From the NCBI GenBank assembly GCA_963701095.1, contig OY969564.1, positions 2,080,001 through 2,144,000 on the forward strand: a stretch of 64,000 nucleotides of DNA. Direction: 5' to 3'. The notes under the pieces are model-generated. The model did not search any database, was not told the origin of the DNA, and saw nothing but the letters and a program-made list of their open reading frames with translations. This DNA comes from an uncultured Methanoregulaceae archaeon. Its GTDB lineage: Archaea > Halobacteriota > Methanomicrobia > Methanomicrobiales > Methanospirillaceae. Made by a program: the position numbers and the translations under genes. This document shows, piece after piece, positions 2,100 through 55,881 of the stretch. How positions within the stretch are numbered: position 1 is the stretch's first letter; the number at the start of each line of letters is the position of its first letter.

Positions 2100-2102
2100 A
2101 CG

Positions 2103-6643: not shown

Positions 6644-9600
6644 ATGGAAAAGATAGATTTAACGGCAAACAAACTTCAAAATAACAATAGTCCACAGGGA
6701 GATATATCTTCAATGTCTAATGACCTGACCTTTATCACCAACGAAAATAACAGGACGTTATATGACCGGTTTAATACACTTATCAATAACACTTCTCTTT
6801 TTGATTGTCTTGTTGGGTATTTTTTCACAAGTGGTTTCAATAAAATATATCGTTCATTAGAGAATACAGAGAAGATTCGTATTCTCATTGGCATCAGCAC
6901 GAACCCACAGACGTATAAATTGATTCAAAATGCACAGCAACAGCAAAGACTGGTTTCCGATTATGAAGTAAAGGAAACCTATAGTCAATCTATTGTGCAG
7001 GAATTTGACGAGTCTCCAGATAATTCCGATGTTGAGACTGGCGCGAAAAAATTTGTTGACTGGATCCTTTCAAAAAAACTCGAAGTTCGTGCATATCCCA
7101 CGGAAAAAATTCACGCTAAAGTCTATATCATGACCTTTAAACAGGGTTCGGTTGATGTTGGCCGGGTTATCACAGGTTCAAGTAATTTCACAGAAGCAGG
7201 TTTACAGCACAATCTTGAATTTAATGTGGAACTGAAGGATCGCAGAGACTATGAATACGCCCTTGAAATGTTCAATAAATTGTGGGCCGAATCAGTGGAT
7301 GTCTCGGAGAAATATGTTGAGACGATCAAAACAAAAACTTGGCTGAATGATGAGATTAAACCCTATGAACTCTACCTGAAACTATTGTATGAATATTTCA
7401 AGGACCGTCTTCTCCTCGATAGTTACGAATTGGAACAGGGCATTATTCCTGACAACTTCATGGATCTCAAATATCAGCGAGATGCGGTTCAGGATGCCAA
7501 ACAGATCCTCGAATCATATGGCGGAGTTTTTATTTCTGATGTTGTCGGTCTTGGTAAAACCTACACGACAACGCTTCTTGCCCGAGAACTAGACGGCAGG
7601 TCTCTAGTAGTAGCCCCTCCCGGATTACTTGACCGGAATAACCCGGGTTCCTGGCCAAATGCATTTGGAGAATTCGGTGTCAGGCAGGGAGAATTTGAAT
7701 CAATCGGGAAGCTCGACTCAATAATTGAGAACGGGGTTGATCGTTTCAAGAATGTAATTATTGATGAATCACATGCATTCAGAAATGAAGAAACCCAGAG
7801 ATATGAAAAACTCGCCCAGATATGTAAGGGGAAACGGGTTATTCTCGTATCTGCCACACCGCTGAATAATACCCCCCAGGACATTGTTGCCCAAATCAAG
7901 CTCTTTCAGGATGGACACAAATCCACCCTACCTAATCCGATTGTGAAGGACCTTGATGCGTATTTTGGAAAGCTCCAAAGACGGCTTGACAACGTAAACC
8001 GGAAGGAAAATCCGAAAGAATACATCAAGATAATGCAAGAAAATTCTGCAGAAATCCGAAAAAATGTTCTTGATTATCTGATGGTGAGAAGGACTAGAAC
8101 CGTTATTGAAAAATATTACAAGAGCGATCTTCGGGTTCAGGGTCTGAAATTCCCCAAGGTCGACGATCCCAAACCCGTGTACTACAATTTTGAAAAAGAT
8201 GTTGAACTTGCATTTAATGAATCGTTGAAATTGATTACTAAATCTCTCAAGTACAGTCGATATACTCCCCTTTTATATCTTAAAAAGATTGACCAGCGCG
8301 AACGAATGGGTCAGATAAATATGGGAAGGTTCATGAAGGTCCTTCTTTTGAAAAGACTGGAGAGCAGTCAATATGCATTCAAGATGTCAATCGGCCGATT
8401 TATCCATTCATATGAACGGGTAATCGAAGAATATGAAAAAGGCTTTGTCTATGTCAGCCGAGATTATGCCCAGAAAATTTTTGATCTTCTTGAGAGCGGG
8501 AGTTATGAGATAATCGAGAAGATGATCGATGAAGATCGTGCTACAAAATATGCCATTGACCAGTTTGATGAATCGCTGATAAGTGATTTAAAAAGCGATC
8601 TCGATGTCCTGAAAAAAATTAGGGGATTGTGGGAAACGATCACTATTGATCCTAAACTTGAAGAGTTCAAGAGACTTCTTGCCAAAGATAAAATCCTGAA
8701 GGAAAACAAACTCCTGGTATTCACCGAAGCAATGGAAACGGCAGAGTACCTTGAGAAGAAACTCAAATCCGAAGCATTTTCTGGAGCTGGAGTACGGTAT
8801 TTCTCCGGTACTGAAGGAACGACCAACAGAAATGAAATCATCCGGAATTTTGATGCGACGTCGCGGAATCAAAGAGATGATTTCCGAATCCTGATAACAA
8901 CCGATGTTCTTTCCGAAGGAATGAACCTGAACCGGTCGAATGTAGTGATTAATTATGATATCCCCTGGAATCCGGTCCGGATGATGCAGCGGGTCGGTCG
9001 TATTAACCGCGTGGCTAAGCGATTGCCCTATGACACAATTCATACGTACAACTTTTTCCCGACTGGTAATATTGAAGAAGAGATCGGCCTGGAATCTGCA
9101 GCAGAAGCAAAAATAGAAGCATTTATCGAAATGCTGGGAGACGATGCCCCACTCCTTCTAGATGAGGAGGTAAAATCCCATGAATCACTATTCAAGAAAT
9201 TGAATTCCCGGGAAATCATTGTTGGTGAAGAAGAGGATGACCTGGAGCTTGCGTATCTTCAGGAAATCCGAAAAGTCAGGGATGAAGAAAAGGAATTATT
9301 TGATAAGATCAAGAAACTTCCAAAGAAGGCCCGTTCCTGCAAAAAATCTGATATTGATGGAGTTATCACATTTTTAAGACGCGGGGATATGAGTAAATTT
9401 TATCTTAACGATAAAAACTCAGTTAAAGAAGTTGATTTTGTTATCGCTGCAGGGCAGGCGAAAACCCAGAAAAATACAAAACGTTGTCCGCTTTCCGAAT
9501 CGTTCTACACATTACTCGAAGCAAACAAAAAAGCGTTTGATATTGTTTTTCATTTCGATGAACTGGGACTGGGGCATGCTGCAGCCAGTACTGCAGAGGG

Positions 9601-9889
9601 AAAAGTCGACCGACGACTTAGGGCCATAGACAAGAAGCCCCTGGTTGAAGAGGACGAGGAATATCTCAAACAGGTATTTGGTTTGATTGAACGTGGCGCT
9701 ATACCGAAAAATACGATCAAACGAATCTGGGATAAGATAAAGGATGAGGATAATTCTCTCAAAATCGTGTCAGTATTGAAACTCAATCTACCGGAAGCAT
9801 ATTTCTCGGAGACCTATTCGGTTGATAAAATGTCAAGGATGGGTAAAAAAGAAGTAATTCTTTCAATGGAGCTGGTATCACATGGATGA
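6644..9889 (+). CDS. PLD-nuclease domain fused to an SNF2-like SF2 helicase
   Basis: IHAKVY...GSSNFT (PLD-like), then DVVGLGKT, IIDESH, SATP, SEGMNL and QRVGRINR helicase motifs. Confidence 0.9.
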   Translation: MEKIDLTANKLQNNNSPQGDISSMSNDLTFITNENNRTLYDRFNTLINNTSLFDCLVGYFFTSGFNKIYRSLENTEKIRILIGISTNPQTYKLIQNAQQQQRLVSDYEVKETYSQSIVQEFDESPDNSDVETGAKKFVDWILSKKLEVRAYPTEKIHAKVYIMTFKQGSVDVGRVITGSSNFTEAGLQHNLEFNVELKDRRDYEYALEMFNKLWAESVDVSEKYVETIKTKTWLNDEIKPYELYLKLLYEYFKDRLLLDSYELEQGIIPDNFMDLKYQRDAVQDAKQILESYGGVFISDVVGLGKTYTTTLLARELDGRSLVVAPPGLLDRNNPGSWPNAFGEFGVRQGEFESIGKLDSIIENGVDRFKNVIIDESHAFRNEETQRYEKLAQICKGKRVILVSATPLNNTPQDIVAQIKLFQDGHKSTLPNPIVKDLDAYFGKLQRRLDNVNRKENPKEYIKIMQENSAEIRKNVLDYLMVRRTRTVIEKYYKSDLRVQGLKFPKVDDPKPVYYNFEKDVELAFNESLKLITKSLKYSRYTPLLYLKKIDQRERMGQINMGRFMKVLLLKRLESSQYAFKMSIGRFIHSYERVIEEYEKGFVYVSRDYAQKIFDLLESGSYEIIEKMIDEDRATKYAIDQFDESLISDLKSDLDVLKKIRGLWETITIDPKLEEFKRLLAKDKILKENKLLVFTEAMETAEYLEKKLKSEAFSGAGVRYFSGTEGTTNRNEIIRNFDATSRNQRDDFRILITTDVLSEGMNLNRSNVVINYDIPWNPVRMMQRVGRINRVAKRLPYDTIHTYNFFPTGNIEEEIGLESAAEAKIEAFIEMLGDDAPLLLDEEVKSHESLFKKLNSREIIVGEEEDDLELAYLQEIRKVRDEEKELFDKIKKLPKKARSCKKSDIDGVITFLRRGDMSKFYLNDKNSVKEVDFVIAAGQAKTQKNTKRCPLSESFYTLLEANKKAFDIVFHFDELGLGHAAASTAEGKVDRRLRAIDKKPLVEEDEEYLKQVFGLIERGAIPKNTIKRIWDKIKDEDNSLKIVSVLKLNLPEAYFSETYSVDKMSRMGKKEVILSMELVSHG

Positions 9890-12800
9890 AGTACGGGCAA
9901 AAAATCTTCTTGAAACGGTTTTTAATTCAAAATTTACTCACAAAAATTTTGAGGATTTTATTGTCAATCTGCTAAATAGTGTAAAAATCAACCAAATTAA
10001 TTACAATTCCTTTATTGTTGGAAATACCGATTTTGAAAACTTTATTCAGGTTCTGGATTATTTTGGCACTTATAAAGATCCCTCGGGAAAAACAGCCGAT
10101 ATTCTTGCAGTAAAACTGACCCGGGATAATTCAAAGATTCGTGCCCGGGTAAAGCAAAGGAATATCATCGCAAACTGGCTGAAAAAATCAAATCATAATT
10201 GTGCTCTCGTAGCTTTTTATGACGATACCGAAGACTGGCGTTTTTCCTTTGTTGAACTTGAACTAAAGACCGGACGAGACGAAGAAGGAAATGTAAAAGA
10301 TTTCCAGATTTTAAGTCCTGCCCGGCGATTATCATTCCTTGTTGGGAAGAATGAGCCGAACCACACTTGTAAAAAATACCTACTCCCTCTTCTTGCCAAT
10401 GATACGACACTACCAGATCTGGATACCATCAGATCTGCATTCAGCATTGAGAGTGTCAGCAAAGAATTCTTTGAGAAATATAAGGAACTATACGACGCAC
10501 TTGTGAAATCACTTAAAGAAGTAATTGCTCAGGATCAGGAAATCAAAGAGGAATTCAAAAACAAAAATGTCGATGTAAGCGAATTTGCCAAGAAACTCCT
10601 GGGTCAGATTGTTTTCATTTATTTTCTTCAGAAGAAAGGTTGGCTTGGCGTTCCGCGAAAGGGAAAATGGGGTGAAGGGCGAAAGGACTTTTTACGTGCT
10701 GTCTTCGATGGCGAATTTGGGAAATATGATAATTTTTTCAATGATGTTCTTGAGCCATTATTCTACAATGCTTTTGCCAACAGCGAACGAGATAACGCAT
10801 ATTATGACAAATTTGATTGCAGGATCCCGTTCCTGAATGGTGGCCTGTTTGAACCCGTCGGGGGATATGACTGGGTAAATACCGATATCGATCTTGATAA
10901 TGATATATTCAAAAAAATCTTCGATACCTTTGACGAGTTTAATTTTACCATTAAGGAAGATGAACCCCTTGAAAAAGAGGTGGCTGTCGACCCGGAAATG
11001 CTTGGAAAAATCTTCGAGAACCTACTGGAAGACAATCTGCGGAAGGGGTATGGCGCCTTTTACACCCCACGTGAGATCGTTCATTATATGTGCCAGGAGA
11101 CTCTGGTGAATTATCTTGCTGATAATTCCACCTTGAAACGTGAGGTAATCGATGCACTTATCCGAAAAGGGAACTCGGTTCTTGAAATTAAAGATTATAT
11201 GTTCCCATTAGGGAAACATGCAAAGACACTCGACAAACTCTTGAAAGAAATTCGTATTGTTGACCCGGCCGTAGGAAGCGGAGCGTTCCCTGTCGGATTA
11301 CTATCCGAAATTGTAAATGCACGAATGATTCTTGGTGAATTTGCAAACAACCAGAACCTTTCACCTTACGACCTTAAACGCGAAACAATCGAAAATTGCC
11401 TATATGGCGTGGACATTGATGCCGGAGCTGTTGATATTGCAAAATTGCGATTCTGGCTTGCTCTTGTTATCGATGAAGATAACGAGGACGAAATTGAACC
11501 TCTACCGAATCTCGAACAAAAAATCATGTGTGGTGATTCCCTGCTTGAGAGTTTTAAGGGTATTCATTTGTTCGATGAAGAAATATTCGAAAAATCAAAC
11601 CAGATAAAATTCCAAATTGATGAAATTGATAATCAAATTGCGATTCTCAACGAAGAAATAGATGCAACTGTATTTGGAAAGACCAGCGTTGACATTGTTC
11701 AGAAGATTGAAAAACTGAAAAAAGAAAAAACAAAATTGCTTGAACAAAAATCAAAAGAGGACCAAGTGACTGTCCTTGAAGGTAGTAAATTCGGTGGTTC
11801 TGGGGCACGGTTACGCTTGAAGGAACTAAGAAAGTCTCCAGAGTGAATTCTTTGATGAGACTATTAAATCCAAAAAAGAAAAACTTCGTAAAGAAATTGA
11901 TCACCTCGAATGGAAATTTATTGAAGATGCTTTGAAAGCAGACGGGCAGAATGACACCGCCGCTGAGACTGTTAAAGAACTCAAGAAAAAAAGAAGTAAG
12001 CCATTCTTTTTATGGAAGTTATACTTCAGTGAAGTATTTGCGGAGAAAGGCAGTTTTGATATTGTAATTGGTAATCCACCTTACGTCCAGATTCAAGGTA
12101 TGCAGGAGGAGTATAAACTTGCTCTTGAAAATGAGAATTATACAACTTTTGCCAGAACTGGCGATCTGTATTGTCTCTTTTACGAACGAGGGTATAAGCT
12201 TTCAAAAGGAGGGGGGCAGACTGCACTCATCACTTCGAATAGTTGGATGAGAGCTGCATATGGAGAAAAATTACGTAAATTTTTAAAAATTAATACAAAA
12301 CCAGAAATTTTGATTGATTTTTCCGATAATCAAATGTTCGAATCTGCGATAGTAAATACAAATGTATTAGTTTTCAGTAAATCTCCACAAAACTGCGATT
12401 ATTCCTTTTATTATACAATTGCTGAAGGGGATTTAAGAGGAAAAGATCTATCCGGATATATAAGCCACCATCGCAAAGAAATTGAGCTTAGTGAGTTAGA
12501 AGAATCGGGATGGACACTTGCGAGTAATAAAGTGCTTGATTTTAAGCGAAAGATTGAGAGCATAGGGACTCCATTAAAAGAATGGGATATCTGTGTCAAT
12601 AGAGGAGTTACAACTGGATTAGTTGATGCATTTATTATTGATGAGGATACTAAAAAAGAGTTGATAAGAAAGGATCCAAAAAGTTCTGATATTATTAAAC
12701 CTCTCATCCGTGGGAGAGATGTTCAGAAATATCGTAATAATTGGGAAAATTTATATTTAATCTGTACTTTTCCTTCATTAAAAATTGATATCGACACTTA

Positions 12801-13365
12801 TCCAGCAATAAAAGATTATTTGAAATCGTTTGGTAAAAAAATCGAACAAACCGGTGAAGAATTTTTGGATAATGAGGGAAAAAAGAGAAAAAGTCGAAAA
12901 AAAACATCTCACAAATGGTTTGAGGTTCAAGACAGTACATCCTATTGGAAAGAGTTTCAGAAAGAGAAATTATTCTGGATTGATTTGGTCGATAACGGTC
13001 GTTTTTCATACGATTCAGATGAGATGTTCGCTGAAAATACTGCATATATAATGACTGGAGAATCGATAAAATATCTTGTCGCGATACTAAATTCAAAATT
13101 GATAAATTACTACTTCAGCTTAATTTGTGCCACATCGGGTATGGGAACAAATAGATGGATAAAAATTTATGTCATGGAATTACCTATTCCCAAAATCACC
13201 GATATGGCACAACAACCGTTCGTAAAATTGGTTGATATCATTTTACGGAAGAAAGGGGGTGGCGAAAACACTAAAATGGATGAGGATGAACTCGACAGGC
13301 TTGTCTATAAATTATATGGTTTGAATAATGATGAAATTGCAATTGTAGAGGAATATAACAATTAA
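9882..13365 (+). CDS. Type IIG / Eco57I-like N6-adenine methyltransferase with TaqI-C-like target recognition domain (frameshift at ~11830)
   Basis: GAFYTPREIV and DPAVGSGAF in ORF 9882-11846. IGNPPY and a TRD-like tail in ORF 11932-13365. The second frame is already open from ~11830 (LQSEFFDE...). Confidence 0.9.
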
Positions 13366-13420
13366 TTCAAATTTTTTGCGGTATCGTTCATCATCTCCCT
13401 GAATCCATTATCTCTTCAGA

Positions 13421-13463
13421 ATGCCCCTATATAATCACCCAATCCTGAATACCTGATATCATG
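13421..13463 (+). promoter_or_regulatory. Putative viral promoter, copy 1 (ATGCCCCTATATAAT)
   Basis: TATA-like box begins at 13428, 33 nt before ATG 13461. Shares its core with the copies at 14608 and 23728. Confidence 0.55.
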
Positions 13464-13841
13464 TCAGGAAGCGCTATCATCGAGGATCAATTAGGAAATC
13501 CATTAGGGAACATTGGCGAGATAAGCGTCATCAATGGATCGCTGTCTGGTTCAACGGTGCCATTGCTCGTTGCAGGAGATTATGGTTCATCTGTACAACC
13601 ATTCCTTCGGAAGTATCCCCAGCTGGCATTCCAGTTTTCATCGTCCGTTTCCGGAGGCCAGTTATCCGTCGTTTTTACCAACGGTGCAACGCAAAGAATC
13701 TTCCTGCTGGGTGCGACCTATGCAACCGCAGGCGTCCTTCAATCAGGAACCGTTATTGTGCCTGTAGGATTTACAGTTAACTTCTACTATTCAGGTATTA
13801 CCGGCAACTATGATCTAACGGTTCGTGAGATCGGGCCGTGA
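13461..13841 (+). CDS. Hypothetical viral protein (beta-rich, possibly virion-associated)
   Basis: 126 aa, Gly/Ser/Thr-rich, behind the viral promoter motif. Confidence 0.65.
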   Translation: MSGSAIIEDQLGNPLGNIGEISVINGSLSGSTVPLLVAGDYGSSVQPFLRKYPQLAFQFSSSVSGGQLSVVFTNGATQRIFLLGATYATAGVLQSGTVIVPVGFTVNFYYSGITGNYDLTVREIGP

Positions 13842-13926
13842 TAACTCCCACGACCAAAGCCATGAGTTTTTGCTGATTTAATTATAAAAGAAACTGATAA
13901 ATTCTCATTTTCAAAAGGTATTTGTT

Positions 13927-14454
13927 ATGAGACAACTCGGCTCACTTGAATCCGCATCTAATGATGTTCTGAAGGATGCGCGAAATCTTTTGACGAGTCT
14001 GCGCAATCATACGATGCACGAACCTGCTACAGTAGCCGAAGCCATAAAAAATCTTAAGCATATTCGGCAAGACACTGCAGAACTCTTAAACCAAATACAA
14101 CATGAGTATTCAATTATTCAAGCCGCAAAATGGCTTCAAGTCAATAATCCTGCGCTAATAGATGCGTCATGGAAATGGAATCCTAGACAGACGGGCGGTT
14201 CCAATGAGCCTGATCTTGCAGTTTATCGTCAAAACAATATTATTATCTCGGCAGAAATTACAACATCGGCAATTCCGCAGGGTGAAATCGATAAACGGAT
14301 GCGGGACACTTTGGAGAAACTTAGCAGAATGCAAGGAGAAAAATTTTATTTTGTGCTCACAGAAAAAATGAGACAACGAGCTCAAACAAAAATTACAAAA
14401 AATGGATGGAATATTCATATTGTTTTAATAAAGGGCGAGAATCAATCTTTATAA
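13927..14454 (+). CDS. Hypothetical protein, possible PD-(D/E)xK nuclease fold
   Basis: AT-rich 175-aa ORF with an EPDL...AEITTS motif. Confidence 0.55.
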   Translation: MRQLGSLESASNDVLKDARNLLTSLRNHTMHEPATVAEAIKNLKHIRQDTAELLNQIQHEYSIIQAAKWLQVNNPALIDASWKWNPRQTGGSNEPDLAVYRQNNIIISAEITTSAIPQGEIDKRMRDTLEKLSRMQGEKFYFVLTEKMRQRAQTKITKNGWNIHIVLIKGENQSL

Positions 14455-14607
14455 ATCCAAAGGATCTGAAAAAGATCATTTCGATGAGTATCAAATTCTA
14501 TTATGTCAATTTCCGATCAAAATGATCGGAATTTTAGCCAGTTATGCCGGAATCATCCCATCGATTCCCTGACGCGACGCAATTCAACTTTTTTCAGAGG
14601 CATCGAG

Positions 14608-14650
14608 ATGCCCCTATATTATGAATTGCCTCCAGACTCGGTAATCAATG
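14608..14650 (+). promoter_or_regulatory. Putative viral promoter, copy 2 (GCCCCTATATTATGAATT...AGACTCGGTAA)
   Basis: TATA-like box begins at 14615, 33 nt before the capsid-locus ATG. Near-duplicate of 23728-23770. Confidence 0.65.
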
Positions 14651-17149
14651 CCTCGCACTGCAGGACCAGGTCACCAGATACGTAAGGGCGGAAAACAGCT
14701 TTTTGCTTTTGACCTCAAGGTTCTCGACGATTCCACGCGGAAAGTGTGTGGCATCGCTACCGGGCCGGATCTAGATCGGGAAAACGAGATGATCCTGAAA
14801 AAGGCCATCGAAAAGGCATTGCCGGATTTCATGATGCTCCCGATCATGCATCTTGACCACACGGAACGTCCGGTCGGATGGTTCACCAAGGCAGAATTTC
14901 ATGGCAACGATCTCTATGTCGAAGCCTGTGTCAAACCGACAGCAGACTGTGATGAGTTCTGGCAGGATGTCAGGAAAGCATCTGCCGACGGCAAACCGTT
15001 CCAGTTCTCCATTTTTGGTGATCGGGTAGCATGCACACCGTCATGTGCACTCCACCCGGATGATCCGAAACGGCATGCTGAACCCTGCATCACCAAAGCA
15101 CTGAAACTTTATTCTATCTCGATCTGCCAACCTGGCACCGCAATCAATCCCAACACGTTTGCGGAGGTCATGAAGGCCATGAACTCAGGTTCAGCAATGA
15201 TCCATCCGACAACGGACGGCACATATCCCAAAAAGGACGGTATTATGGAAAAAACCGACGATGAAAACGAGAAATCACCCGGTGAGCATCAGACCCCGAT
15301 AAAGGATGCAAGCGACGGTCCTGACCGTGACAATCAGGGATCAGAAGAACAACCCAGCGAGAATGGCGCTATGCAGCCGGTGATCGATCTGCTCACCCAA
15401 GTCGTAGAGAGAATACAATCCCTGGAAAGTTCGCTCGGCCTGTATAAATCGGAAACGAAACCCGGAAACGAAGATGAAGAAAAACCCGGTGAGACCCCTG
15501 ACGATAAGGATAATGACACCGATGATAAGGAGCAGGTCAGGAAATGCCCCTTACCACCGGCACAGAAGGCAGCGACCGTGACAGACACCACCATCACCAA
15601 AGCCGTTCTCGGCAGGATTGAAAAAGCTGAAGGCAGGATGACCGAGATCGAGATGAGACTCGACCGGATTGAAAAGAGTACCGCAAAGGGACCCGATGTG
15701 ATCCTCGTCGATCCGGTCATGAATAAGGCAATGGAACAGACCGCCGATAAAGACGGGATGAATCCGATTGTGAAATCAGCCGGGGCCGAACAGACTCAGC
15801 AATTTCGAGAAACTTTTCCACGGACGGTAATGCAAATGTCAGCAATAGTGAAATCTACAGGGTTCGGCTCCCTTCCGGGGTTGAACATCGGTGTGCGTGA
15901 AGCACGCTCCCGGGCACGCCAGTATTGGGGGCCCGGCGTTGAGGAAGGCGATGTGATCTATGATGTGCAGGCAATCCAGAAGGCCGCCCAAGCGGGCATG
16001 ATCGAAGCAATCGAGCAGGACCCGCGTGCAGCCATCATGATCCCGCTGGTCGAGCTGGTCTCCCCGTCCCAGGTACGGAAAGCCGTATTCGATAACACCT
16101 ACGGTATGGAGGGGTTCAAGAAAGATCTCAAGAAAGCCCAGCAGGACTTCATCAGTGAGATCGATGCCCAGCTCAGGACATCCACGATGAAGAAAGCAAC
16201 CAGCACCGCCAGCGTCCCGAACCTGATGCACAACTACTCCGATGAGGAAGTTGTCATGCTGTTCAAGAAGATCTACCCGGCGCAGGCTTTGATCCCGGTC
16301 GAGGCAAATCACGGTAAAGTAGCCCAGTGGGATGCTATCACGGAAACCGGTGCCGGTACCGCATTCTTCGGCGGCGAAGATCCCAATACGCCGGAATCCG
16401 ATATGACGGACGCGATCCGCACGGCGACCACGAAGATCATGTATACCTTCTTCCGTATCACGAAGATGGCAAAAGTCGCAGGCCAGACCCAGTACCCGGC
16501 CCGTGACCTCGTATCAATCCGCACACTTGCGGCAAACGAGATGATCCGGAACCTGCGTGAACGGTCGATCATCGGCGTAACCCGTGACGTGACCAATACC
16601 GATCCACAGTATGCCAGTGCCCAGGCACTTGAATACGACGGTCTCCAGGCACTTATCACCAACAACACCACCGCACCGCTCTACCAGACCTATGCCGGCG
16701 GCACAGCAACCCTCGACAAGATCAAACCGTTCCTGGACGAGACGATCCGGCTCATGGTCCGGCACGGCAGATATCCCAACCTCGCACTCTGTGACTGGAA
16801 GACCTTTGGTATCATCGGGCGCGGTCTCAATGAATTCTGGAGAACGGAACAGGTCAAGGCGACCGAGTTCGGTTTCGGTAAGGTGGATATTATCACGCCG
16901 ATAGGTCAGATCCCACTCGTCCCGATCACCTTTATGCCGACGAGTACCGGCAACAACGGCAGTATCATGGTTCTTGATACATCGGTTCTCGCCCGGCGTG
17001 TGCTCTGGGGTGACACCTATGAGGAACTTGCCAACCTGAACACTTCGCAGAGAGGCGTCATCTCGGCCGCTGAAGTGCTCATCGACAAATCGGACAGCAA
17101 TGGGACCAACAGCCTCCAGGGAGGCGTATGGGGAATCACCATACCGTGA
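14648..17149 (+). CDS. Prohead protease - scaffold - major capsid protein (single ORF)
   Basis: N-terminal HK97-type protease motifs (DRENE, LDHTERPVG, FSIFG), an acidic/coiled-coil middle, and a C-terminal capsid-like region (EYDGLQALI, YEELAN). Confidence 0.8.
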   Translation: MPRTAGPGHQIRKGGKQLFAFDLKVLDDSTRKVCGIATGPDLDRENEMILKKAIEKALPDFMMLPIMHLDHTERPVGWFTKAEFHGNDLYVEACVKPTADCDEFWQDVRKASADGKPFQFSIFGDRVACTPSCALHPDDPKRHAEPCITKALKLYSISICQPGTAINPNTFAEVMKAMNSGSAMIHPTTDGTYPKKDGIMEKTDDENEKSPGEHQTPIKDASDGPDRDNQGSEEQPSENGAMQPVIDLLTQVVERIQSLESSLGLYKSETKPGNEDEEKPGETPDDKDNDTDDKEQVRKCPLPPAQKAATVTDTTITKAVLGRIEKAEGRMTEIEMRLDRIEKSTAKGPDVILVDPVMNKAMEQTADKDGMNPIVKSAGAEQTQQFRETFPRTVMQMSAIVKSTGFGSLPGLNIGVREARSRARQYWGPGVEEGDVIYDVQAIQKAAQAGMIEAIEQDPRAAIMIPLVELVSPSQVRKAVFDNTYGMEGFKKDLKKAQQDFISEIDAQLRTSTMKKATSTASVPNLMHNYSDEEVVMLFKKIYPAQALIPVEANHGKVAQWDAITETGAGTAFFGGEDPNTPESDMTDAIRTATTKIMYTFFRITKMAKVAGQTQYPARDLVSIRTLAANEMIRNLRERSIIGVTRDVTNTDPQYASAQALEYDGLQALITNNTTAPLYQTYAGGTATLDKIKPFLDETIRLMVRHGRYPNLALCDWKTFGIIGRGLNEFWRTEQVKATEFGFGKVDIITPIGQIPLVPITFMPTSTGNNGSIMVLDTSVLARRVLWGDTYEELANLNTSQRGVISAAEVLIDKSDSNGTNSLQGGVWGITIP

Positions 17150-17158
17150 GGTGGAATT

Positions 17159-17698
17159 ATGTCAGCAAGTCAGATCTCTAAGCTTTTTAACCTGCAGTAC
17201 GTGATGCCGATTGCAATCAAGGTCATGAAGGCCGCACAGAACGATTGGGTCAATATCGGGAAACCGGGTATGATCGTAAAGGGTATTCTCAGCGCAGACC
17301 TTGATACCTTCAGCCTGGGAACCAGCGTTCAGGAACCCAATACCTACGGCCCCGGACTCATCAATAACGCCGGTAACCCGTATGGCGCGACCGATACCGT
17401 GATCGCCGTCAATGGTATGCTCGCTGATGGTGTGTATCCCCGCATCACCCCGTATCTCATCGCGACCAGCAGCGGCGAGATCCTTGAAGTGACGCAGGAT
17501 TCGGCACCACTGGCTGTAGCGGCAAACCTGACCGTCAAACGCGGCCGGTATGGAACGACGGCTACCGGTACCGGTCTCGCAAACGGGAACCGCATTTCGA
17601 TCCTGAACCAGATTGTCCTTTCATCTACCTCAGTCGGGATGGTCACCGGGATTGTGCAGCCCATTGGTGATGACAGCGGTATCAATGCATTTGTGTGA
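17159..17698 (+). CDS. Putative virion structural / decoration protein
   Basis: 179 aa immediately after the MCP, with a GAGGTG ribosome-binding site. Confidence 0.6.
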   Translation: MSASQISKLFNLQYVMPIAIKVMKAAQNDWVNIGKPGMIVKGILSADLDTFSLGTSVQEPNTYGPGLINNAGNPYGATDTVIAVNGMLADGVYPRITPYLIATSSGEILEVTQDSAPLAVAANLTVKRGRYGTTATGTGLANGNRISILNQIVLSSTSVGMVTGIVQPIGDDSGINAFV

Positions 17699-17711
17699 GG
17701 TGGCCTGAACC

Positions 17712-18472
17712 ATGACCACCATTTCACCGTTGCACAACTGCCAGGGCGTCAAGGCAATGGCGAGCGGGTCCCAGATTGGCGGCACGACCATTACCACCGG
17801 CTCCGGTTCCCGGCCGGAGTTGTGGTAGCGGTCACTATCGGCGACCTGTATATCGACCAGGCCAACGGCATCCTCTATCAGGCTACCGCTACTGGAACAG
17901 CCAACTGGATTGCCCTGTCTTCACTGTCATCTATTCCCTCCGGGACCACGATTGGCGGCACCGGGTTCAATACCGGAAGCGGTACGCCAAAAGGCGTTGT
18001 CACGCCTGCCCGTATCGACGACCTGTATTTTGATTACACCAATGGCGTACTCTGGATGGCGAGCGGTACGACCAATATGAGCTGGTCAGTCGTTGCAACG
18101 AGTACACCTGACCTCCAGACATATGCAGGAAACATTACCCTTGCACAGATCCAGGCCGGTGTCGTCCTGGTTCCTAATATGGCCGGGTATACCATCACAC
18201 CTATCCGGTACAAGATCATCGTCAAGGGAACTGCTGGAGGTTCTGGGAACCTTGTCCTTCAGGACACAAACGCCACCCCGGTTGTGATTACAACTATCGC
18301 CGAGGCTTCACTTGCCGGGATCCTCACTTCGGAAGTAGCGGCCACGGGTAAAACAGATGGTGCCGGTATGTGTGCTCCATTGACTACCGGAAAGGGCATC
18401 CAGATCCCGGCCACTGCCACGCTTACGACCCTTACCGGTATCTTCGTAGTGATCGATTACCAGCTCAATTAA
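17712..18472 (+). CDS. Putative virion (head fibre / decoration) protein with an internal tandem repeat (frameshift at ~17810)
   Basis: GAGGTG RBS and ATG at 17712. Adding one C joins it to ORF 17822-18472 and restores two IGGT..TGSG.P.GVV....DLY.D..NG.L repeats. Confidence 0.65.
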
Positions 18473-18483
18473 ACGAGGTTCCC

Positions 18484-19203
18484 GTGACCTACCTTACCCA
18501 GAGTGATGTAGAATCCACCGGCGGAGGATACTGCTATTCAGATTTCAGGCAGTCCGGCAGCGTTATGACTGCCGCCCAGTGGCAGCTCTATTGCGGGGAA
18601 CTTATCGCTGCGATAGACTCTGCCATTAACCACTACTGCCGTGTTCCTTCGTTCGAGATCAACACCTACACCGAGCTGTATGATGGGCGGGGGCCTACGG
18701 GAGATCGGGGAGAATACCTGCCGAGAGACAGGTTGTTCCTCCTTCGGCAACAGCCGGTAGTCTCATTAGTCAGTGTTTCAGAAAACATCAACGATCCCTC
18801 CGATCCGATTGCATGGACTCCTCGGGTACTCCGTACTACGACTTCTCCGACCGGGGGAGCAGATTTTGAACTCCTGGTACGGGGAACGTCCCTGTCGTAT
18901 ATCTTTTTCTGGAACAATATCCCGGCAAAAGGCCGGAATAATGTGCAAATAGTCTATACGGCCGGGTATGCTGTGGGTTCCGAACTTTTGAACGATATCC
19001 AGTTTATCGCCATGCAGATCGCGGATAACCTGCTCGGACGGAAGAAGAGATACCAGGAAGCAAATGCTGCCCGCCAGTCATCAACCAAAGATTCCACCGA
19101 TATGTTCAGGATGGACGCGAACGGCGCGATCTTTACTGAAGATATCCGGTTGCAGCTCGACAAGTACCGGCGGCAGCGTACCGGAGGTTCAGCATGGCGG
19201 TAG
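18484..19203 (+). CDS. Head-tail adaptor (connector) protein
   Basis: GAGGT RBS and GTG start. YLTQSDV start, IDSAINHYC, ELYDG, NVQIVYTAGY and LQLDKYRR are typical of adaptors. Confidence 0.75.
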   Translation: MTYLTQSDVESTGGGYCYSDFRQSGSVMTAAQWQLYCGELIAAIDSAINHYCRVPSFEINTYTELYDGRGPTGDRGEYLPRDRLFLLRQQPVVSLVSVSENINDPSDPIAWTPRVLRTTTSPTGGADFELLVRGTSLSYIFFWNNIPAKGRNNVQIVYTAGYAVGSELLNDIQFIAMQIADNLLGRKKRYQEANAARQSSTKDSTDMFRMDANGAIFTEDIRLQLDKYRRQRTGGSAWR

Positions 19204-19469
19204 AGGGCGAAATCCTGACGTTTACCCGTATCGATCTCGAAAATCTCCGGGAAATGATGACGACGGTAAAAACGCTCTATGAAAAGCTCGATACGCTGGG
19301 AAAAGGCATTGCTGCATGTCAGGCAAACTGTAAAGAACATCGTGACAAGGTTGATGGCCGGGTCAAAACGCTGGAAACCCAACAGAATCGCTGGATAGGA
19401 CGCGATGGTGTCATTCTCATCATCGTGCCTTTGATAATCTCGCTCATAGGTTGGTGGGTGTTCCGCTGA
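19194..19469 (+). CDS. Small coiled-coil protein with a C-terminal TM helix (holin/XhlA-like candidate)
   Basis: 91 aa ending in GVILIIVPLIISLIGWWVFR. Confidence 0.55.
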   Translation: MAVEGEILTFTRIDLENLREMMTTVKTLYEKLDTLGKGIAACQANCKEHRDKVDGRVKTLETQQNRWIGRDGVILIIVPLIISLIGWWVFR

Positions 19470-19915
19470 TGGATGACCGGCGTATCATCAGGGATATCGT
19501 GACCGGAGAGGTCGATATTGACGTTCTCCAGGACAGGATCCTCAAAGTATTTACTGACGAGATCAACGCCGCGATGGTGAAAGATACTCCGGGTGATATG
19601 AAATGGAGCGAACGACTCATCGGCAGGCACCAGGTCGAATTCTCAAATAACGCCAGGTATCTCCCCTTCCTTATCTCCGGTACTGGCCTCTACGGTCCCA
19701 GGCACCAGATGATCTGCGCCAAAGGCATGAGCGGACGAAACCCCGGGCACGTCCATGTCATGGCATGGAAACCACGTGGCGGCGGCGATATGATATTCAG
19801 GAGATGCTCTCGCGGGATTCGCCCACGTCCTTTCACCTGTATCGAGACCGGGGTCGCGGATGCAATCTCGGCATTAACCTCATTGTTCGCGGAGGCTGAT
19901 CGTGTCATCAGCTGA
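19469..19915 (+). CDS. Putative neck / tail-completion protein (HK97 gp10-like)
   Basis: Position in the module, plus YLPFLISGTGLYGP and GIRPRPF motifs. Confidence 0.65.
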   Translation: MDDRRIIRDIVTGEVDIDVLQDRILKVFTDEINAAMVKDTPGDMKWSERLIGRHQVEFSNNARYLPFLISGTGLYGPRHQMICAKGMSGRNPGHVHVMAWKPRGGGDMIFRRCSRGIRPRPFTCIETGVADAISALTSLFAEADRVIS

Positions 19916-20351
19916 CGCCATTAACGGTATTGTCGATGCGATTATCTCCCGCATCACGTCGAATTTTACCTCGTTGGGGATCACGACGATAACCGAGACC
20001 GATCAGGAGCCGCAGTATATCAATCCCGGAACGGCCTACATCATTCCTTTCGTTGAGGGAAAGGACATGATCAAGATTTTCAACGGTGGCGAACAGCACA
20101 ATTACCCGATCAATCTCATCGGATTCTACAAGTATGCTGATATCCCAACGGGTCTGCGTCCGGTTCGTTCGTACGGGCTGACCGCACTCGACCTGTTCAC
20201 CCGGAAAAATGCGACCCTCACCCACACCGTAAACAGCACAACCTATGGCTCGGAAGTCGTCGGGGCGACGCTCGAAGTCGGATACTGGCGGGTTGGAGAT
20301 TACATCATGCATATGTGGACCTTGCAGCTGCAAATGCAACAGATTATGTGA
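19902..20351 (+). CDS. Putative tail terminator protein
   Basis: 149 aa directly before the tail tube gene. Called on synteny and size. Confidence 0.55.
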   Translation: MSSADAINGIVDAIISRITSNFTSLGITTITETDQEPQYINPGTAYIIPFVEGKDMIKIFNGGEQHNYPINLIGFYKYADIPTGLRPVRSYGLTALDLFTRKNATLTHTVNSTTYGSEVVGATLEVGYWRVGDYIMHMWTLQLQMQQIM

Positions 20352-20368
20352 AAAATTGAGGTAAAACA

Positions 20369-20824
20369 ATGACTTCACCACTTATGGATACCTTTTTCGG
20401 GAATCGCGGAATGATCAGTATCGGATCGGCTTCTCCCTGTGCCGTCTTCAAGGGCATTGAGATTACGCCCAAGAGCGACGTCGTGAAGCTGTATGGCGGC
20501 GGATCAATTCTCTGGGCAGATGTTGCCCGGCATAGTTTCTCGGTCACTGTCAAAATCAAGACCGCGAAGTTCGATGTTGGTCTCAGCACATCATTCATGT
20601 ACCAGATTATCAATCCGGGCACTGGCGGCGGGACGGTTGGTGATACCAATGCTGTTCAATTCTTCACCGTTGTAGCCGTGGCTACCGGTTCTAATGGTAC
20701 TATTGTCCGGCAGACCGTTACCAACGTGTATTTCGAAAGCATACCTGGTGGTCTCCCGGAAAACGATTGGTGGACTCCTGAATTCTCCGGTGAGGGACAG
20801 ACCATCGTCTATGCAAATTCGTGA
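20369..20824 (+). CDS. Putative tail tube (major tail) protein
   Basis: GAGGT RBS, 151 aa and beta-rich. No sheath gene nearby. Confidence 0.65.
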   Translation: MTSPLMDTFFGNRGMISIGSASPCAVFKGIEITPKSDVVKLYGGGSILWADVARHSFSVTVKIKTAKFDVGLSTSFMYQIINPGTGGGTVGDTNAVQFFTVVAVATGSNGTIVRQTVTNVYFESIPGGLPENDWWTPEFSGEGQTIVYANS

Positions 20825-20833
20825 GGTAATTCG

Positions 20834-21289
20834 ATGGATGTAACCGCTGAACTGGCCAAGAAGGATGAGCTCGACCGACAAACAGAACTCAAAAACAGTG
20901 CAATGGAAGACCTGATCCGTTCTTCCGGTGAAAAATGTATCACCATTGAGCATAACGGCAAGGAGATTAAAATCCGGCCTGCATTCCCGCGCAAAGTCCG
21001 GAAACTGGTAACCGGTTTGGCGTCGAAGTACAAAGATATTGATCTCGATGCAATCAAAGCCGGATCCCCGGCAAAATCTGATATTGAACAGATGCCGGGG
21101 TTTTCTGACGACAGTGACGAAACCCTGTACGAAATCTTGGCTGTGGTGTGTCTGGCGCCTTACAACGAAGCTGCTGCGTGGCGATATTTTGATGAGAACA
21201 CCGGGGAAGCCGAGATTGTGTTCAAGAAAGCCCAAGCGGCAATTCAGGAGGCCCAGGCCGCTGCCGTTGCCTTTCGCAAAGAGTCCTAG
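20834..21289 (+). CDS. Tail assembly chaperone (G-like); candidate +1-frameshift extension to 21431
   Basis: Lies between the tube and tape measure genes. Ends GCC TTT CGC AAA GAG TCC TAG, with the +1 frame open to 21431. Confidence 0.7.
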   Translation: MDVTAELAKKDELDRQTELKNSAMEDLIRSSGEKCITIEHNGKEIKIRPAFPRKVRKLVTGLASKYKDIDLDAIKAGSPAKSDIEQMPGFSDDSDETLYEILAVVCLAPYNEAAAWRYFDENTGEAEIVFKKAQAAIQEAQAAAVAFRKES

Positions 21290-21553
21290 AGGGCAAGCAC
21301 TCGCTGAACTCTGTGTCATCACCGGAAAAATGCCTAACGAGTTAGGTCATATCGATCCTTTTGACGAAGGATTCATGATCGCTGCATTAACGGAAAGGCA
21401 CAACAAACAAGTGAAAAATGCCGGATTATGACCCTGTTAACTTGTTATGTAACGATCAATTTTCCAACCACTGAAAAAAATTCTCGATCCCTCACCAAGT
21501 TAACTGATCCAATCTTCATAATTGTTTTATAAGTTTGATATCTATTCTTCCAT

Positions 21554-22321
21554 ATGACGTTAGAAATTGATAACGGAGTTGTTATTTATTTAGATGCTCT
21601 CGGTATTTCGAAATACACAGATACTGCCCAATTTTTGGATTTTATTTGTGAAATCAAAAAAATGAAAATTAGAGCCCAATATGTTTGGAACAAATGGAAG
21701 GATAAATTCGAAAAAGAAGAAGTCATGTTGCCTGATCCCAAAATCGCTATTTTCCAAGATTCCATTATAATTTGTTTCCCAGATAAAGTGAAAAAAGACA
21801 ATACTTTGCATAATTTTTTTGCCGCTCAAAATTGGTTAATGGCTGCTTATTTCGTAGCAATAGAAAAGGGATTATTTTTTCGTGGTGCAATCTCTTGTGG
21901 TGAATATATTTATGATGAAACCGAGGGAGGAATAGCGGTTTTGGGAGCACCAGTTGTCGAAGCGATCAATTATGAGAAAAAAGGTGATTGGATCGGTGTA
22001 ATTCAAACAGATTATTTTCAGGAACAATATATGAAGGCTCTAGTCCAGTATGCTTCTGCTCATAAACTGGATTTAGAAGATGTCGTTCAAGGATACAATC
22101 GATTTTATGTCAAATATGAGGTTCCAATAAAAGATAATAGAAAATCAGAACATTATGTTGTAAATTGGCCGACAATTTGGAAAAGTGTCGGAACCGATAT
22201 ATTAAAAACATTCCTCACAAAAGCTCGTGACGAAACTGAAAATGGCGAAGACAAGAAAAAATATGATAATACCATTGATTTCGTAAAATATTGTGAAAAG
22301 CATCGCTTCTTTTTGCAATAG
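21554..22321 (+). CDS. Class III nucleotidyl-cyclase-like protein (cargo)
   Basis: IYLDALG, FQDSII, FRGAISCGE and LGAPVVEA..YE appear in cyclase order. AT-rich. Confidence 0.65.
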   Translation: MTLEIDNGVVIYLDALGISKYTDTAQFLDFICEIKKMKIRAQYVWNKWKDKFEKEEVMLPDPKIAIFQDSIIICFPDKVKKDNTLHNFFAAQNWLMAAYFVAIEKGLFFRGAISCGEYIYDETEGGIAVLGAPVVEAINYEKKGDWIGVIQTDYFQEQYMKALVQYASAHKLDLEDVVQGYNRFYVKYEVPIKDNRKSEHYVVNWPTIWKSVGTDILKTFLTKARDETENGEDKKKYDNTIDFVKYCEKHRFFLQ

Positions 22322-22352
22322 TTGGCGCTGGACGAGCACTTTTATACATTTT

Positions 22353-23606
22353 CTACATTCGTGATGCGACTATATCCGCATAGGGCTGAGCATCGCTTAT
22401 AGACAATGTATTGTAAAGGCTGCCAATTCCACCTTCTCCATATTGAATGGTTACAATAACATTAGCCTTTCTAAATATCACATAAGCCGAATCTTCTGAA
22501 ACATATCCGAAACCCTCATCCCCTTCATTTACAGATTCGACCTTATAATCCGTAACCTTCGCCTTTGTTTGATCATATGACGTCACGGCATCAGCAATTG
22601 AAGAATTTTCTTGAATGGTTTGGTACACCGTATATGCCGATGAAATTCCTTGAACTTGAACAAACTCACTATTGTAGGAATTTCCCGTGGTTTTGGGTTC
22701 TGATAAGACTTTCCATCCAGTCGGAAGATCATTAATTGTCAATGCCATCGAAGCGGGACTATTTGTTATTACCGTTTCTGAAGAACTACCACTCGATGAA
22801 GAACCATTTACTGCTCCCGGATGTGAGGCAAAATAACCAAAAATGATCAGAATTAATAGAAAAAATGCCACACCTATGATTGCTATTCCGAGTTTTGAGC
22901 CGGATTTTCTGCCAACATTATTCTGAATGTGGGGTTGATTGTGGTAATTATCATCTCCCTCCACATCGCCACTGTTGATTCTAACAGCCGCATGATATGC
23001 GTCATACATGCTATATATCCATATTATGAACAATGGAATGATCCCGATGGCAATTATACATAAAATTGCTGAAAAAAATGCGAGCACAAATAAAACAATT
23101 CCCTTTTTCCATTGGTCTGTGTAGCACTGTCCTGCACCGGGAATGAAAAATGAAACCAATACCGCCAAAAAGGGACTTTTTTCTTTCAGTATAATGCGAT
23201 TCTGTTTTCTCTCTGACTTTTCAATCTTATTGGGAACAGACACTCTCGGAGTAGGAGATCCCTTGAGATACGCGCCACAGGAATTACAGTAATACCTCCC
23301 TGCTTCGACAATTGCTCCGCATTCAGGACAGGCATTCCCGTTAATTGTAGATTGGCGCTTTACATTCTGTTCCGACACTGGTTGTTTCGCTACGGGGGGT
23401 GAATTTACAGGTTGATATATCGGCAACGGTGAACCACAGACGTTACAAAATAAAGATTCCCCTCGTAAAATTTTTGCACCACATTTCGGACAAAAGGTAT
23501 TATCTTGTCTCGGAATGCTTTCTGTTAATTTCGTCCCACATTTATTGCAAAACATCGATTGGTCATCAATCGGCTGTGTTCCACATTTGGGGCAGATTTT
23601 TACCAT
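22353..23606 (-). CDS. Triple zinc-ribbon + TM2-like membrane protein with an extracellular domain
   Basis: Three CxxC..CxxC ribbons, a KSPFLAVLVSFFIPGAGQCY TM2-like segment, a further TM helix and a Ser-rich linker. Confidence 0.8.
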   Translation of the reverse strand: MVKICPKCGTQPIDDQSMFCNKCGTKLTESIPRQDNTFCPKCGAKILRGESLFCNVCGSPLPIYQPVNSPPVAKQPVSEQNVKRQSTINGNACPECGAIVEAGRYYCNSCGAYLKGSPTPRVSVPNKIEKSERKQNRIILKEKSPFLAVLVSFFIPGAGQCYTDQWKKGIVLFVLAFFSAILCIIAIGIIPLFIIWIYSMYDAYHAAVRINSGDVEGDDNYHNQPHIQNNVGRKSGSKLGIAIIGVAFFLLILIIFGYFASHPGAVNGSSSSGSSSETVITNSPASMALTINDLPTGWKVLSEPKTTGNSYNSEFVQVQGISSAYTVYQTIQENSSIADAVTSYDQTKAKVTDYKVESVNEGDEGFGYVSEDSAYVIFRKANVIVTIQYGEGGIGSLYNTLSISDAQPYADIVASRM

Positions 23607-23727
23607 TAAATCACATGGGAACTTCAGTTGTCTATATGATTAATATTTTGTTTTTTAATTGATTCTCTTTATAGAATACATAGAACCCGATATACGAAGT
23701 CGTTTAATTTCTTTAAAGATCCCCACA

Positions 23728-23770
23728 TTGCCCTATATTATGAATTATCTTTAGATTCGGTAACAGGATG
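23728..23770 (+). promoter_or_regulatory. Putative viral promoter, copy 3 (GCCCTATATTATGAATT...AGATTCGGTAA)
   Basis: TATA-like box begins at 23734, 34 nt before the tape measure ATG. Confidence 0.65.
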
Positions 23771-24823
23771 CCGGATTATAACGTGAAAGTTGTCGTGGAC
23801 GTGCAGGGCAAGAAAGTCATGGATGAGCTAGCGAAAAGCGCTGGCGACAAATCCAAATCCCTCAGCGGTGCCATCGGTTCTGCGACTGCTGATGTTTCGA
23901 AAGGCAAAGATATCGGATCGGTTTTTGCGACATTGATTAAGGCGATCATGCCTCTCACAGCGGTTTTAGGGGTGGGGGTCGGTTTACTGACTTTAGCAGT
24001 TGGCAATTCCAAAATCCTTAATTCAATCTTTGGAACTATCGGGAAACTGCTCGGCTTCCTCGTCGATATTATCCTGTTACCCTTAATGCCGTTCTTTATC
24101 CAGCTCGTGAATTTCATGTACCAGATGATCCTCGCGTTCCGGGCATTTACCAAGAACCTGAGCGGGCAGGGTGCGATTGCATTCCTTGTCAGTATGGCCC
24201 TTCTTGGACCAGCCGGATGGCTTGAGTCTCTCATTATCGCATGGCTCGCCAGTTCTAACAGCCCCCTCAAAGGTGCGCTTAATTTCACTCTCGGAATCCT
24301 GCAAGGTGTCGGCGGCTGGCTCTGGTCGGTCGGTCAATGGATCTGGGGTGCTGGGGGCAAAGTAGTGAACAGCGCGATATCGGTTTTAATCAATATCGGT
24401 TCCGCGATCACCGGGTTTTTGAGCGGCATTACGTCGCTGGGGTCAACCATCCTGCAATGGATCTTTGGCCTTGTCACCCCGCAAAACACCTCGCTCACCT
24501 TAAACTTCATCGCAAACCTCGTAGGCGATGCATGGACTACGCTTTCCAATCTTGCACATGCCGGGGTCTCGTTCATTTCAAACGGGCTCAGCCAACTCGG
24601 CCTGAACCTCCCGTCGCTTGATTCCGGGGGTGCCGTCATGCAGACCGGTGTTGCCGTAGTGCACAAGGGAGAGACGTACAGCGGCGTGAATGGGAACGTG
24701 AACACCGGCGGTGGAGGAAACACGTATAATTTCTATTACCAGGGGACGTTCAAATCGGACAGCGACCTTTTCAACTGGTTCATGCAGCAGATGCGCCAAC
24801 AGGGCCGGGGGCTTAAACTGTGA
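23768..24823 (+). CDS. Tape measure protein (short)
   Basis: Ala/Gly/Leu-rich amphipathic helices with a C-terminal LPSLDSGGAV..TG.AVVHKGE motif typical of TMP ends. Confidence 0.75.
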   Translation: MPDYNVKVVVDVQGKKVMDELAKSAGDKSKSLSGAIGSATADVSKGKDIGSVFATLIKAIMPLTAVLGVGVGLLTLAVGNSKILNSIFGTIGKLLGFLVDIILLPLMPFFIQLVNFMYQMILAFRAFTKNLSGQGAIAFLVSMALLGPAGWLESLIIAWLASSNSPLKGALNFTLGILQGVGGWLWSVGQWIWGAGGKVVNSAISVLINIGSAITGFLSGITSLGSTILQWIFGLVTPQNTSLTLNFIANLVGDAWTTLSNLAHAGVSFISNGLSQLGLNLPSLDSGGAVMQTGVAVVHKGETYSGVNGNVNTGGGGNTYNFYYQGTFKSDSDLFNWFMQQMRQQGRGLKL

Positions 24824-27881: not shown

Positions 27882-28226
27882 ATGGTCAGAAGGTCAAAAA
27901 AATTTAGATATTCGTTAAATAATAGTCAGTTATGTCCTATGGGAATTGTAGATTCCTGGGATTTCCTTCTTATTCACCCTCTTGTAAAAAAATATCTTCT
28001 GGAACAAAAAAGCCAAGACCCTCAAAGGAGAATGCCGTATAGTGTATCGACGACAAAGGTTCTGGATTATATTGATGAAAATCCCACCATGAAAAGCCAC
28101 CGGATTGTCAGGATGGAATGGTGCATAAACCATTCCCTGCGGGAATTCGGTTATCGTAAGGACTCTGTGGCGGGTCGGTCGTACTCGCTGACGAATATCG
28201 GCGTGATTGTACCGGTAACCGCATAA
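27882..28226 (+). CDS. Hypothetical protein
   Basis: 114-aa basic ORF after the tail module. Confidence 0.5.
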   Translation: MVRRSKKFRYSLNNSQLCPMGIVDSWDFLLIHPLVKKYLLEQKSQDPQRRMPYSVSTTKVLDYIDENPTMKSHRIVRMEWCINHSLREFGYRKDSVAGRSYSLTNIGVIVPVTA

Positions 28227-55865: not shown

Positions 55866-55881
55866 TAACATAAAAACGGTT

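Follow-up and report, generated by a model that had tools for sequence, protein, structure and literature searches.

A C-flanked TATA element as the probable late promoter of virion genes, bordering variable cargo, in a tailed-virus provirus of Methanoregula

This work concerns a short repeated DNA element in a window of 64,000 nucleotides from an uncultured Methanoregulaceae archaeon (assembly GCA_963701095.1, contig OY969564.1, positions 2,080,001 to 2,144,000 of the forward strand; the window is this whole stretch, and coordinates are counted from its first letter). Its three motif sites lie inside a tailed-virus provirus of a host of the genus Methanoregula, and the consensus derived from relatives, AT(G/T)CCC(C/G)-TATAWWAY, covers approximately 16 nt. 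Sequence comparison indicates that the element is probably the late promoter, i.e., the promoter of the virion genes, in a group of tailed viruses that infect Methanoregula and genera close to it. That it is a promoter at all seems highly probable, and its dependence on a viral factor is, in our judgement, evenly balanced. By comparison of loci, the element is conserved, virus-restricted, co-oriented and placed 32–34 nt before the ATGs of unrelated virion-module genes that lack a Shine-Dalgarno (SD) sequence.

An initial annotation of this DNA had reported three GCCC(C)TATAT sites, each 33–34 nt before an ATG, and both the coordinates and the spacing were confirmed: the sites are at 13423, 14610 and 23730, and their TATA sequences start at 13428, 14615 and 23734, which is 33, 33 and 34 nt before the ATGs at 13461, 14648 and 23768, respectively. 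Taken as complete elements on the + strand, copy 1 (AATGCCCC-TATATAAT) occupies 13420..13435, reaches 22.9 bits against a matrix whose training sites did not include it and has orthologues in L021 and G050 (L denotes a locus and G a genome among the relatives, which were drawn from viral contigs, metagenomes and genomes; G000 is the source genome); copy 2, at 14607..14622, appears to be the ancestral promoter of the protease/capsid operon; and copy 3, at 23726..23741, a duplicate of the protease promoter of the close clade. A fourth copy, missed by the initial annotation, is located inside the terminase gene terL (1789..1804, + strand, TATA at 1797, 19.0 bits), 306 nt before the portal ATG. 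Copies 2 and 3, described earlier as alignable over about 40 nt, can be aligned over 56 nt with 71% identity, and the sequence CCCTATATTATGAATT common to both occurs twice in the 2.63-Mb genome, both times at these copies. Directly 5' of the box there is no purine- or A-rich TFB recognition element (BRE); AT(G/T)CCC(C/G) stands there instead. Positions -4 to -1 before the box are C or G in the 16 sites from relatives except for one T, and the G of GCCC is present in just 4 of these 16. The earlier suggestion that GCCC replaces the purine-rich BRE holds for the C-rich block and for the missing A-rich BRE, and GCCC itself was discarded as a consensus. Only about 7 nt upstream of the TATA sequence are conserved, and no conserved stem-loop or pair of arms was seen upstream of the element when the sequences of the relatives were compared without folding.

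The conservation of the element in relatives is most evident at the protease gene. In all 12 distinct protease loci compared, its distance to the downstream protease ATG is exactly 33 nt, and this spacing is unchanged while the spacer itself has diverged between clades to 16–23 identical nucleotides out of 37. The CCC(C/G) block has been retained in three genera, in contrast with the scrambled spacer. Genome G249 has three copies that head virion modules, one of them ahead of the terminase block, a place where no copy was found in the source genome; G222 has seven copies in three small contigs, each 29–32 nt before an ATG. The modules of G222 (L062, L059, L063) form an array in which each is led by a copy of the element, and several of the module proteins share a lysine/glycine-rich N-terminus and are possibly packaged in the head. 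An island in G050 (L061, G050:C12 at about 46000–56000) comprises an integrase, a copy of the 126-residue gene that follows copy 1 (79% identical) and two element copies; it also carries many toxin-antitoxin-like and Fic genes, and has two cargo blocks in common with L022.

The initial annotation had proposed a virus-specific promoter-like element, and the scans of the host, the family and the order bear this out. The pattern CC[CG]TATA[TA] at 36–37 nt before the start was found at 3 of 19 leading genes of the provirus versus 1 of 1529 of the host (Fisher p 6e-6), with gene calls from a simple hexamer caller and a pattern picked after the sites had been seen. A matrix trained on 16 sites, all from relatives, detected the four provirus sites at 17.7–22.9 bits, all on the + strand; the score of copy 2 is not independent, because its orthologues were in the training set. 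Sites of at least 16 bits number four in the provirus, where approximately 0.3 would be expected, versus 19 in 5.2 M host strand positions. Equal frequency at host promoters, which the initial annotation had named as fatal to its proposal, was not observed. A strict pattern that includes the spacing to the ATG occurs in 4 of 228 genomes of the family (G000, G222, G249 and G050; seven sites, and none with a reversed control), of which G222 and G249 carry related proviruses and G050 a remnant. With a looser pattern, 401 genomes of the order gave 23 matches versus 7 in the control; six belong to the three provirus genomes, and among the 17 non-viral matches one heads a plausible host gene and 16 do not. 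A scan of viral contigs for the variant of copies 2 and 3 returned six stretches, none related to the core genes of this virus. From these results the element appears to be virus-restricted, and host promoters to be essentially without it.

The distance between the element and the start codon bears on the kind of transcript to be expected. No SD of at least 4 nt is present in any of the three motif-led leaders, in agreement with the earlier remark that no obvious SD exists there, and an SD is present at 5 of 6 internal late genes tested. In Methanocaldococcus jannaschii the TATA box has its 3' edge 23±2 nt from the transcription start (PMC2699501). Applied to the element, this spacing places the start of transcription about 0–7 nt from the ATG, and the fixed distance to the ATGs of unrelated genes likewise predicts a start site at or near the ATG. 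Leaderless or nearly leaderless late transcripts are therefore likely for the motif-led genes, and the short leaders predicted earlier are supported by the fixed spacing and the absence of an SD. The TATA boxes of the host peak 26–36 nt before the starts, so that the geometry of the element falls within the host range. Upstream of the host boxes the flank is mildly A-rich, as it is, by eye, in the promoters of the host tRNA genes; what seems to set the element apart from host promoters is this upstream flank and not its geometry.

Directly upstream of each of the three copies there is an AT-rich insert, as previously stated, with 36–38% G+C versus 51–53% in the viral core blocks. Cargo 1 (3765..13408, + strand, 36% G+C) encodes an unknown 853-residue protein, a PLD-Snf2 helicase and a type IIG restriction-modification gene, and stands in place of the C-terminal extension of the portal and the MuF block. 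Other cargo occupies this slot in L046, L021 and G050; in L021 it precedes copy 1, and in L046 toxin-antitoxin-like cargo follows the portal and is itself followed by an element copy before a different virion gene. Cargo 2 (13842..14586, + strand, 38% G+C) consists of one 175-residue gene, and its slot is empty in L021 and contains different genes in L022 and L023. Cargo 3 (21489..23725, 37% G+C) consists of two convergent genes, for a 255-residue protein (+) and a 417-residue zinc-ribbon membrane protein (-). The initial annotation had proposed to look in related proviruses for variable genes upstream of the motif, and for the protease promoter of the 12 loci the upstream 300 nt are alike in only 5 of 66 pairs versus 66 of 66 for the downstream side; the genes 5' of the promoter, labelled by eye, include HNH-like, small minus-strand, Fic-like and response-regulator-like ones, or there are none. 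Even in relatives whose proteins are 92–96% identical, homology starts no earlier than 14608, 7 nt before the TATA sequence, and the homology start points near the copies are 14608, 14587, 13415/13408 and 23731. In four wetland DNA runs the contigs have high depth over the 126-residue gene and the core and low depth over the cargo; the wetland contigs of close relatives start at 13408, 14587 and 23731. On this comparative evidence the slots are real and hypervariable. Being compact and self-contained, the promoter would allow any DNA to sit upstream of it, so that cargo (restriction, toxin-antitoxin, Fic and membrane genes) could accumulate without cutting off the virion genes.

The origin of copy 3 could be approached from the junction in which it lies, between the chaperone region and the tape-measure-like gene. 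Motif and cargo are found there in none of four distant relatives (L007, L009, G041 and G249), in which the chaperone region directly adjoins the tape-measure-like gene; in G249 this gene has a clear SD. Copy 3 is identical to copy 2 at 29 of 37 nt and to copy 1 at 18 of 37; its identity to the protease promoters of the close clade is 25–29 of 37, versus 18–20 of 37 to copy 1 or distant orthologues, and its TATATTAT variant is shared only with copy 2 of the same genome. These comparisons indicate that copy 2 marks an old transcription-unit boundary and that the boundary at copy 3 is new, duplicated from the protease promoter. The earlier proposal that cargo slots sit at unit boundaries is thus upheld at copy 2, and at copy 3 it has to be amended. 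Cargo 3, with its convergent genes, would be polar without a restart, and the simplest reading would be that promoter copy 3 came with the insert or licensed it.

It is proposed that the copies spread through short-homology recombination at the ATGCCCCTATA core, which would shift cargo between slots and would have made a new unit start, copy 3, within a formerly continuous tail operon. L022 and G050 share a Fic cassette (88% identity over 607 nt) whose end falls inside ATGCCCCTATA; from there the sequence continues as a copy-2-type promoter in L022 versus a copy-1-type promoter in G050. We are inclined, by a little, to accept such core-mediated shuffling of cargo. In run X2, one low-depth contig joins 13450 to 20825 and so places a copy-1-type promoter at the start of the chaperone gene; the joint represents either a further promoter copy or a 7.4-kb deletion. 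The crossover inside the core, together with contigs that end at the motif, the cassette-like arrays of G222 and an 18-nt stretch that in G041 is identical in the terL site and the protease promoter, could also be explained if the element were the recombination or insertion site of a cassette system, its nearness to start codons being secondary. We consider this very improbable, since the fixed 32–34 nt to the ATG and the loss of the SD call for a transcription-start explanation, the element is not palindromic and has no dyad typical of recombinase sites, and the copies diverge beyond the 15-nt core.

The copy inside terL differs from the others in that it is part of a coding sequence: the site at 1789–1804 is translated as T-F-P-Y-I, and no ATG follows it at 33 nt. 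The C or G ending of its proline codon tracks the promoter of each virus in 6 of 6 lineages, and among 91 conserved fourfold sites in TerL and the portal such tracking is seen at one, namely this site, with two changes on the tree and in lineages that are few and related to each other. The terL site of G249 has lost the TATA sequence, and in G041 the 18-nt identity is accompanied by three amino-acid changes in TerL. The comparison suggests either an internal promoter for the portal gene or conversion between copies.

Regarding the way in which the late promoter would work, TBP is expected to bind TATAWWAY, and AT(G/T)CCC(C/G) in the BRE position would be a poor match to the A-rich BRE of the host, so that little or no activity is to be expected from the promoter in the lysogen. 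It would then be turned on by a viral factor that is sequence-specific and acts at the TFB site or immediately next to it. Since the homology between relatives starts at the motif, no upstream activator site is conserved, and the reader of the element would be confined to about -8 to +33. The best candidate for this factor is a 95-residue protein with a predicted winged-helix fold, a putative late regulator encoded directly after the last tail gene (27939..28226, + strand). Its gene is the non-virion gene best conserved across lineages, being present in 5 of 5 lineages that cover the spot; homologues occur in 6 of 228 genomes, one of them weak, and those of G115, G211 and G172 lie either at the end of a contig or on one that is small. 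The predicted structure has a confidence (pLDDT) of 80 and a fitting order of structural elements, and its top matches are winged helices with Z of at most 6.4 and Foldseek E of at least 0.08; a search of the ESM Atlas with the protein gave no usable hit. Among the left-arm and late unknown genes, Pfam and PHROGs returned no name pointing to an activator. By its position and modelled fold, the 95-residue protein is a candidate activator or repressor.

If it were a repressor, the C-rich block would be its operator, placed over the BRE position, and its occupation would silence the virion genes in the lysogen. The site overlaps the TFB footprint, repressors of viral origin that bind over the BRE have a precedent in F55 of SSV1 (PMC5569661), and in three relatives the 95-residue gene has a host-like A-rich TATA promoter, from which it could be expressed in the lysogen. 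Nevertheless, we regard an operator as improbable, given that the derepressed promoter would still lack a consensus BRE and yet must drive the capsid gene, and that the site is not palindromic. Returning to the late promoter turned on by a viral factor, a more detailed version can be offered, although we hold it doubtful as a whole: the winged-helix protein would read AT(G/T)CCC(C/G) beside TBP, replacing or joining the TFB contact, the 15-nt core would act as a recombination anchor through which promoter copies spread, break up operons and move defence cargo from slot to slot, and element and factor would drift together in each lineage, the copy in terL included. If true, this would be an archaeal counterpart of the late sigma swap of phages.

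Several findings weigh against the reading of the element as a factor-dependent late promoter, or against parts of it. The initial annotation had called for a search for a viral TFB; none was found in the provirus (PF00382, whose sole match in the genome, one contig and 86% complete by markers, is one host gene), which speaks against a viral TFB as the driver and leaves the 95-residue gene as the only activator candidate. Of five protease loci at a greater distance, only two (G249 and G222, from other genera) have the element, at 32 nt; in G251 it is missing, in G246 a different motif is repeated, and G043 allowed no judgement. The motif of G246 (L045), 14 nt long, occurs twice before ATGs upstream of the protease gene, and is perhaps its own late promoter. 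Cargo-like blocks without a following copy exist, namely the ParB-DUF488 cassette of the left arm and the gene at 28278–28787, and the insert that follows gene 19902–20351 in L022, with its far end off the contig, departs from a strict pairing of cargo and copy. As for recombination, one clear crossover provides most of the case, and the breakpoints at the motif could stem from selection alone. The provirus may also be defective, as a part of the portal and MuF have been lost: the portal is shortened to 553 residues (633–1071 in relatives) at the start of cargo 1 (window 3757–3764), and no MuF-like head gene was found in the genome. With one mismatch or fewer, the 9-mer has 11 matches in the window versus 11.1 expected from shuffling, and exact GCCC(C)TATAT occurs 18 times in the whole genome; the short motif alone was therefore dropped as proof. 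A count that equals the shuffled expectation is what a chance likeness of AT-rich intergenic DNA would give, an explanation whose probability is close to nil, since it is contradicted by the conservation of sequence and spacing in relatives.

A more serious alternative is that the element is an ordinary TBP/TFB promoter that requires no viral factor, with a C-rich flank that is a lineage trait maintained by duplication and conversion of one ancestral promoter; timing would then come from replication, chromatin or read-through control. [quoted passage not shown] In the host, a single TFB is accompanied by three TBPs, which could differ in preference. Of 109 host TATA boxes none follows CCC or CCG, where approximately one is expected, so that a depletion in the host is not established. 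On the other side, CCC(C/G) is preserved over three genera despite the scrambled spacer, and host promoters are without the element, with the single plausible gene among the looser non-viral matches. An ordinary promoter is, in our opinion, unlikely.

The late promoter proposed here can be compared with known systems. The gene of our candidate, small, conserved and adjoining the end of the last tail gene, recalls the late activators of the Ogr type in P2, although Ogr is a zinc finger and our candidate a predicted winged helix. Classical phage morons are likewise AT-rich foreign genes among virion genes, but transcription either passes through them or is bounded by a terminator of their own; here, the core genes after the insert would be restarted by a late promoter. 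The closest resemblance is with the class II intergenic repeats of HF2, a repeated virus-specific late promoter of the morphogenesis module that is conserved in relatives; these repeats are active without viral proteins, and control by viral factors, not identified there, was proposed (PMC8707807). As in HF2, the element is repeated before morphogenesis genes, conserved in relatives and rare in the host, and in both C runs stand beside AT boxes (the HF2 repeat being read from AF222060). The HF2 repeat, from a haloarchaeal myovirus, differs in that it is a near-identical 29-bp sequence with three AT motifs and without a sequence match to the 16-nt element, and the available part of PMC8707807 makes no link to cargo slots. 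Other promoter cassettes are, like the element, repeated at the borders of variable genes, and recombination at them shuffles these genes: the promoter early stem-loop (PeSL) cassettes of T4-type phages, in which an early promoter and a terminator stem-loop of approximately 100 bp drive cargo (PMC2839356), and the TATA-plus-inverted-repeat motif of HGTV-1, for which shuffling was proposed (summarised in PMC3950731). In contrast to PeSLs, the 16-nt element, a probable late promoter, is placed downstream of the cargo and would drive core virion genes; a conserved stem-loop is missing, and instead of a unit of about 100 bp the upstream DNA of relatives is unrelated beyond about -8 to -28. Regarding activation, TFB-RF1 acts on promoters with a weak BRE through a palindrome upstream of it, the consensus in Pyrococcus being VRAAA (PMC5937170). 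A non-consensus BRE beside a good TATA box, plausibly activator-dependent, is common to both cases; here nothing is conserved upstream of about -8, and any factor would have to read the BRE position or downstream DNA. A review of the transcription factors of archaeal viruses notes the use of canonical TATA and BRE sequences and a downstream GTC motif in SIRV (PMC5569661). No description of such a promoter in methanogen viruses was found in the literature searched, which did not cover subscription papers; the main text of the Blf4 paper has no occurrence of "promoter" or "TATA", nor that of PMC9796341 of "promoter" or "motif".

The provirus starts at an integrase that lies some 10.7 kb ahead of the window and ends near window position 28250, in a host genome that is one contig and 86% complete by markers; no convincing repeat that could represent attachment sites was found between its ends. 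On the + strand, the terminase large subunit, frameshifted in this assembly, and the portal occupy 571..3764. The 126-residue gene led by copy 1 (13461..13841) has no SD and seven homologues, and is a viral gene of the close clade. A prohead protease/scaffold-like gene is joined to the major capsid protein (Pfam SU10_MCP) at 14648..17149, the protease label being derived from position and sequence, as no family was hit. This 833-residue fusion is due to one extra base at 15794; relatives without this base have two genes, and an assembly error is likely because further frameshifts affect terL, dam, the restriction gene, one tail gene and host genes in the vicinity. Then follow the presumed tail assembly chaperone region (20834..21431, assigned by position and orthology, without a family hit) and the tape-measure-like gene led by copy 3 (23768..24823, without an SD, labelled from position and composition), whose orthologues are 46–52% identical; a head-tail adaptor and tail genes assigned by position are also present. 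The capsid protein gave no match against 50,697 records of cultured phages, and the tape-measure query against viral contigs gave nothing that could be confirmed. Regarding the relatives, the C-terminal extension of the portal in the close relative L046 (6470–7102) looks by eye like what we take to be an ADP-ribosyltransferase domain. The G041 provirus contains a tandem array of 18-nt repeats (L040, about 8815–9150). In the left arm of the provirus described here there are a further AT-rich cargo of three genes (L002, 13915–16087) and a tRNA-Thr (L002, 17533–17608).

These results address an open question, namely how archaeal tailed viruses without an RNA polymerase of their own time their late genes. 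With a target of only 16 nt, variants of it that occur in nature and a single candidate protein, this question becomes directly testable in a methanogen system. They also show how a provirus may take on defence cargo among its virion genes, by means of a portable promoter placed behind the insert, and in genomes of Methanomicrobiales the pattern marks this group of viruses with high specificity. If the element depends on a viral factor, it could serve as an orthogonal promoter for methanogen genetics.

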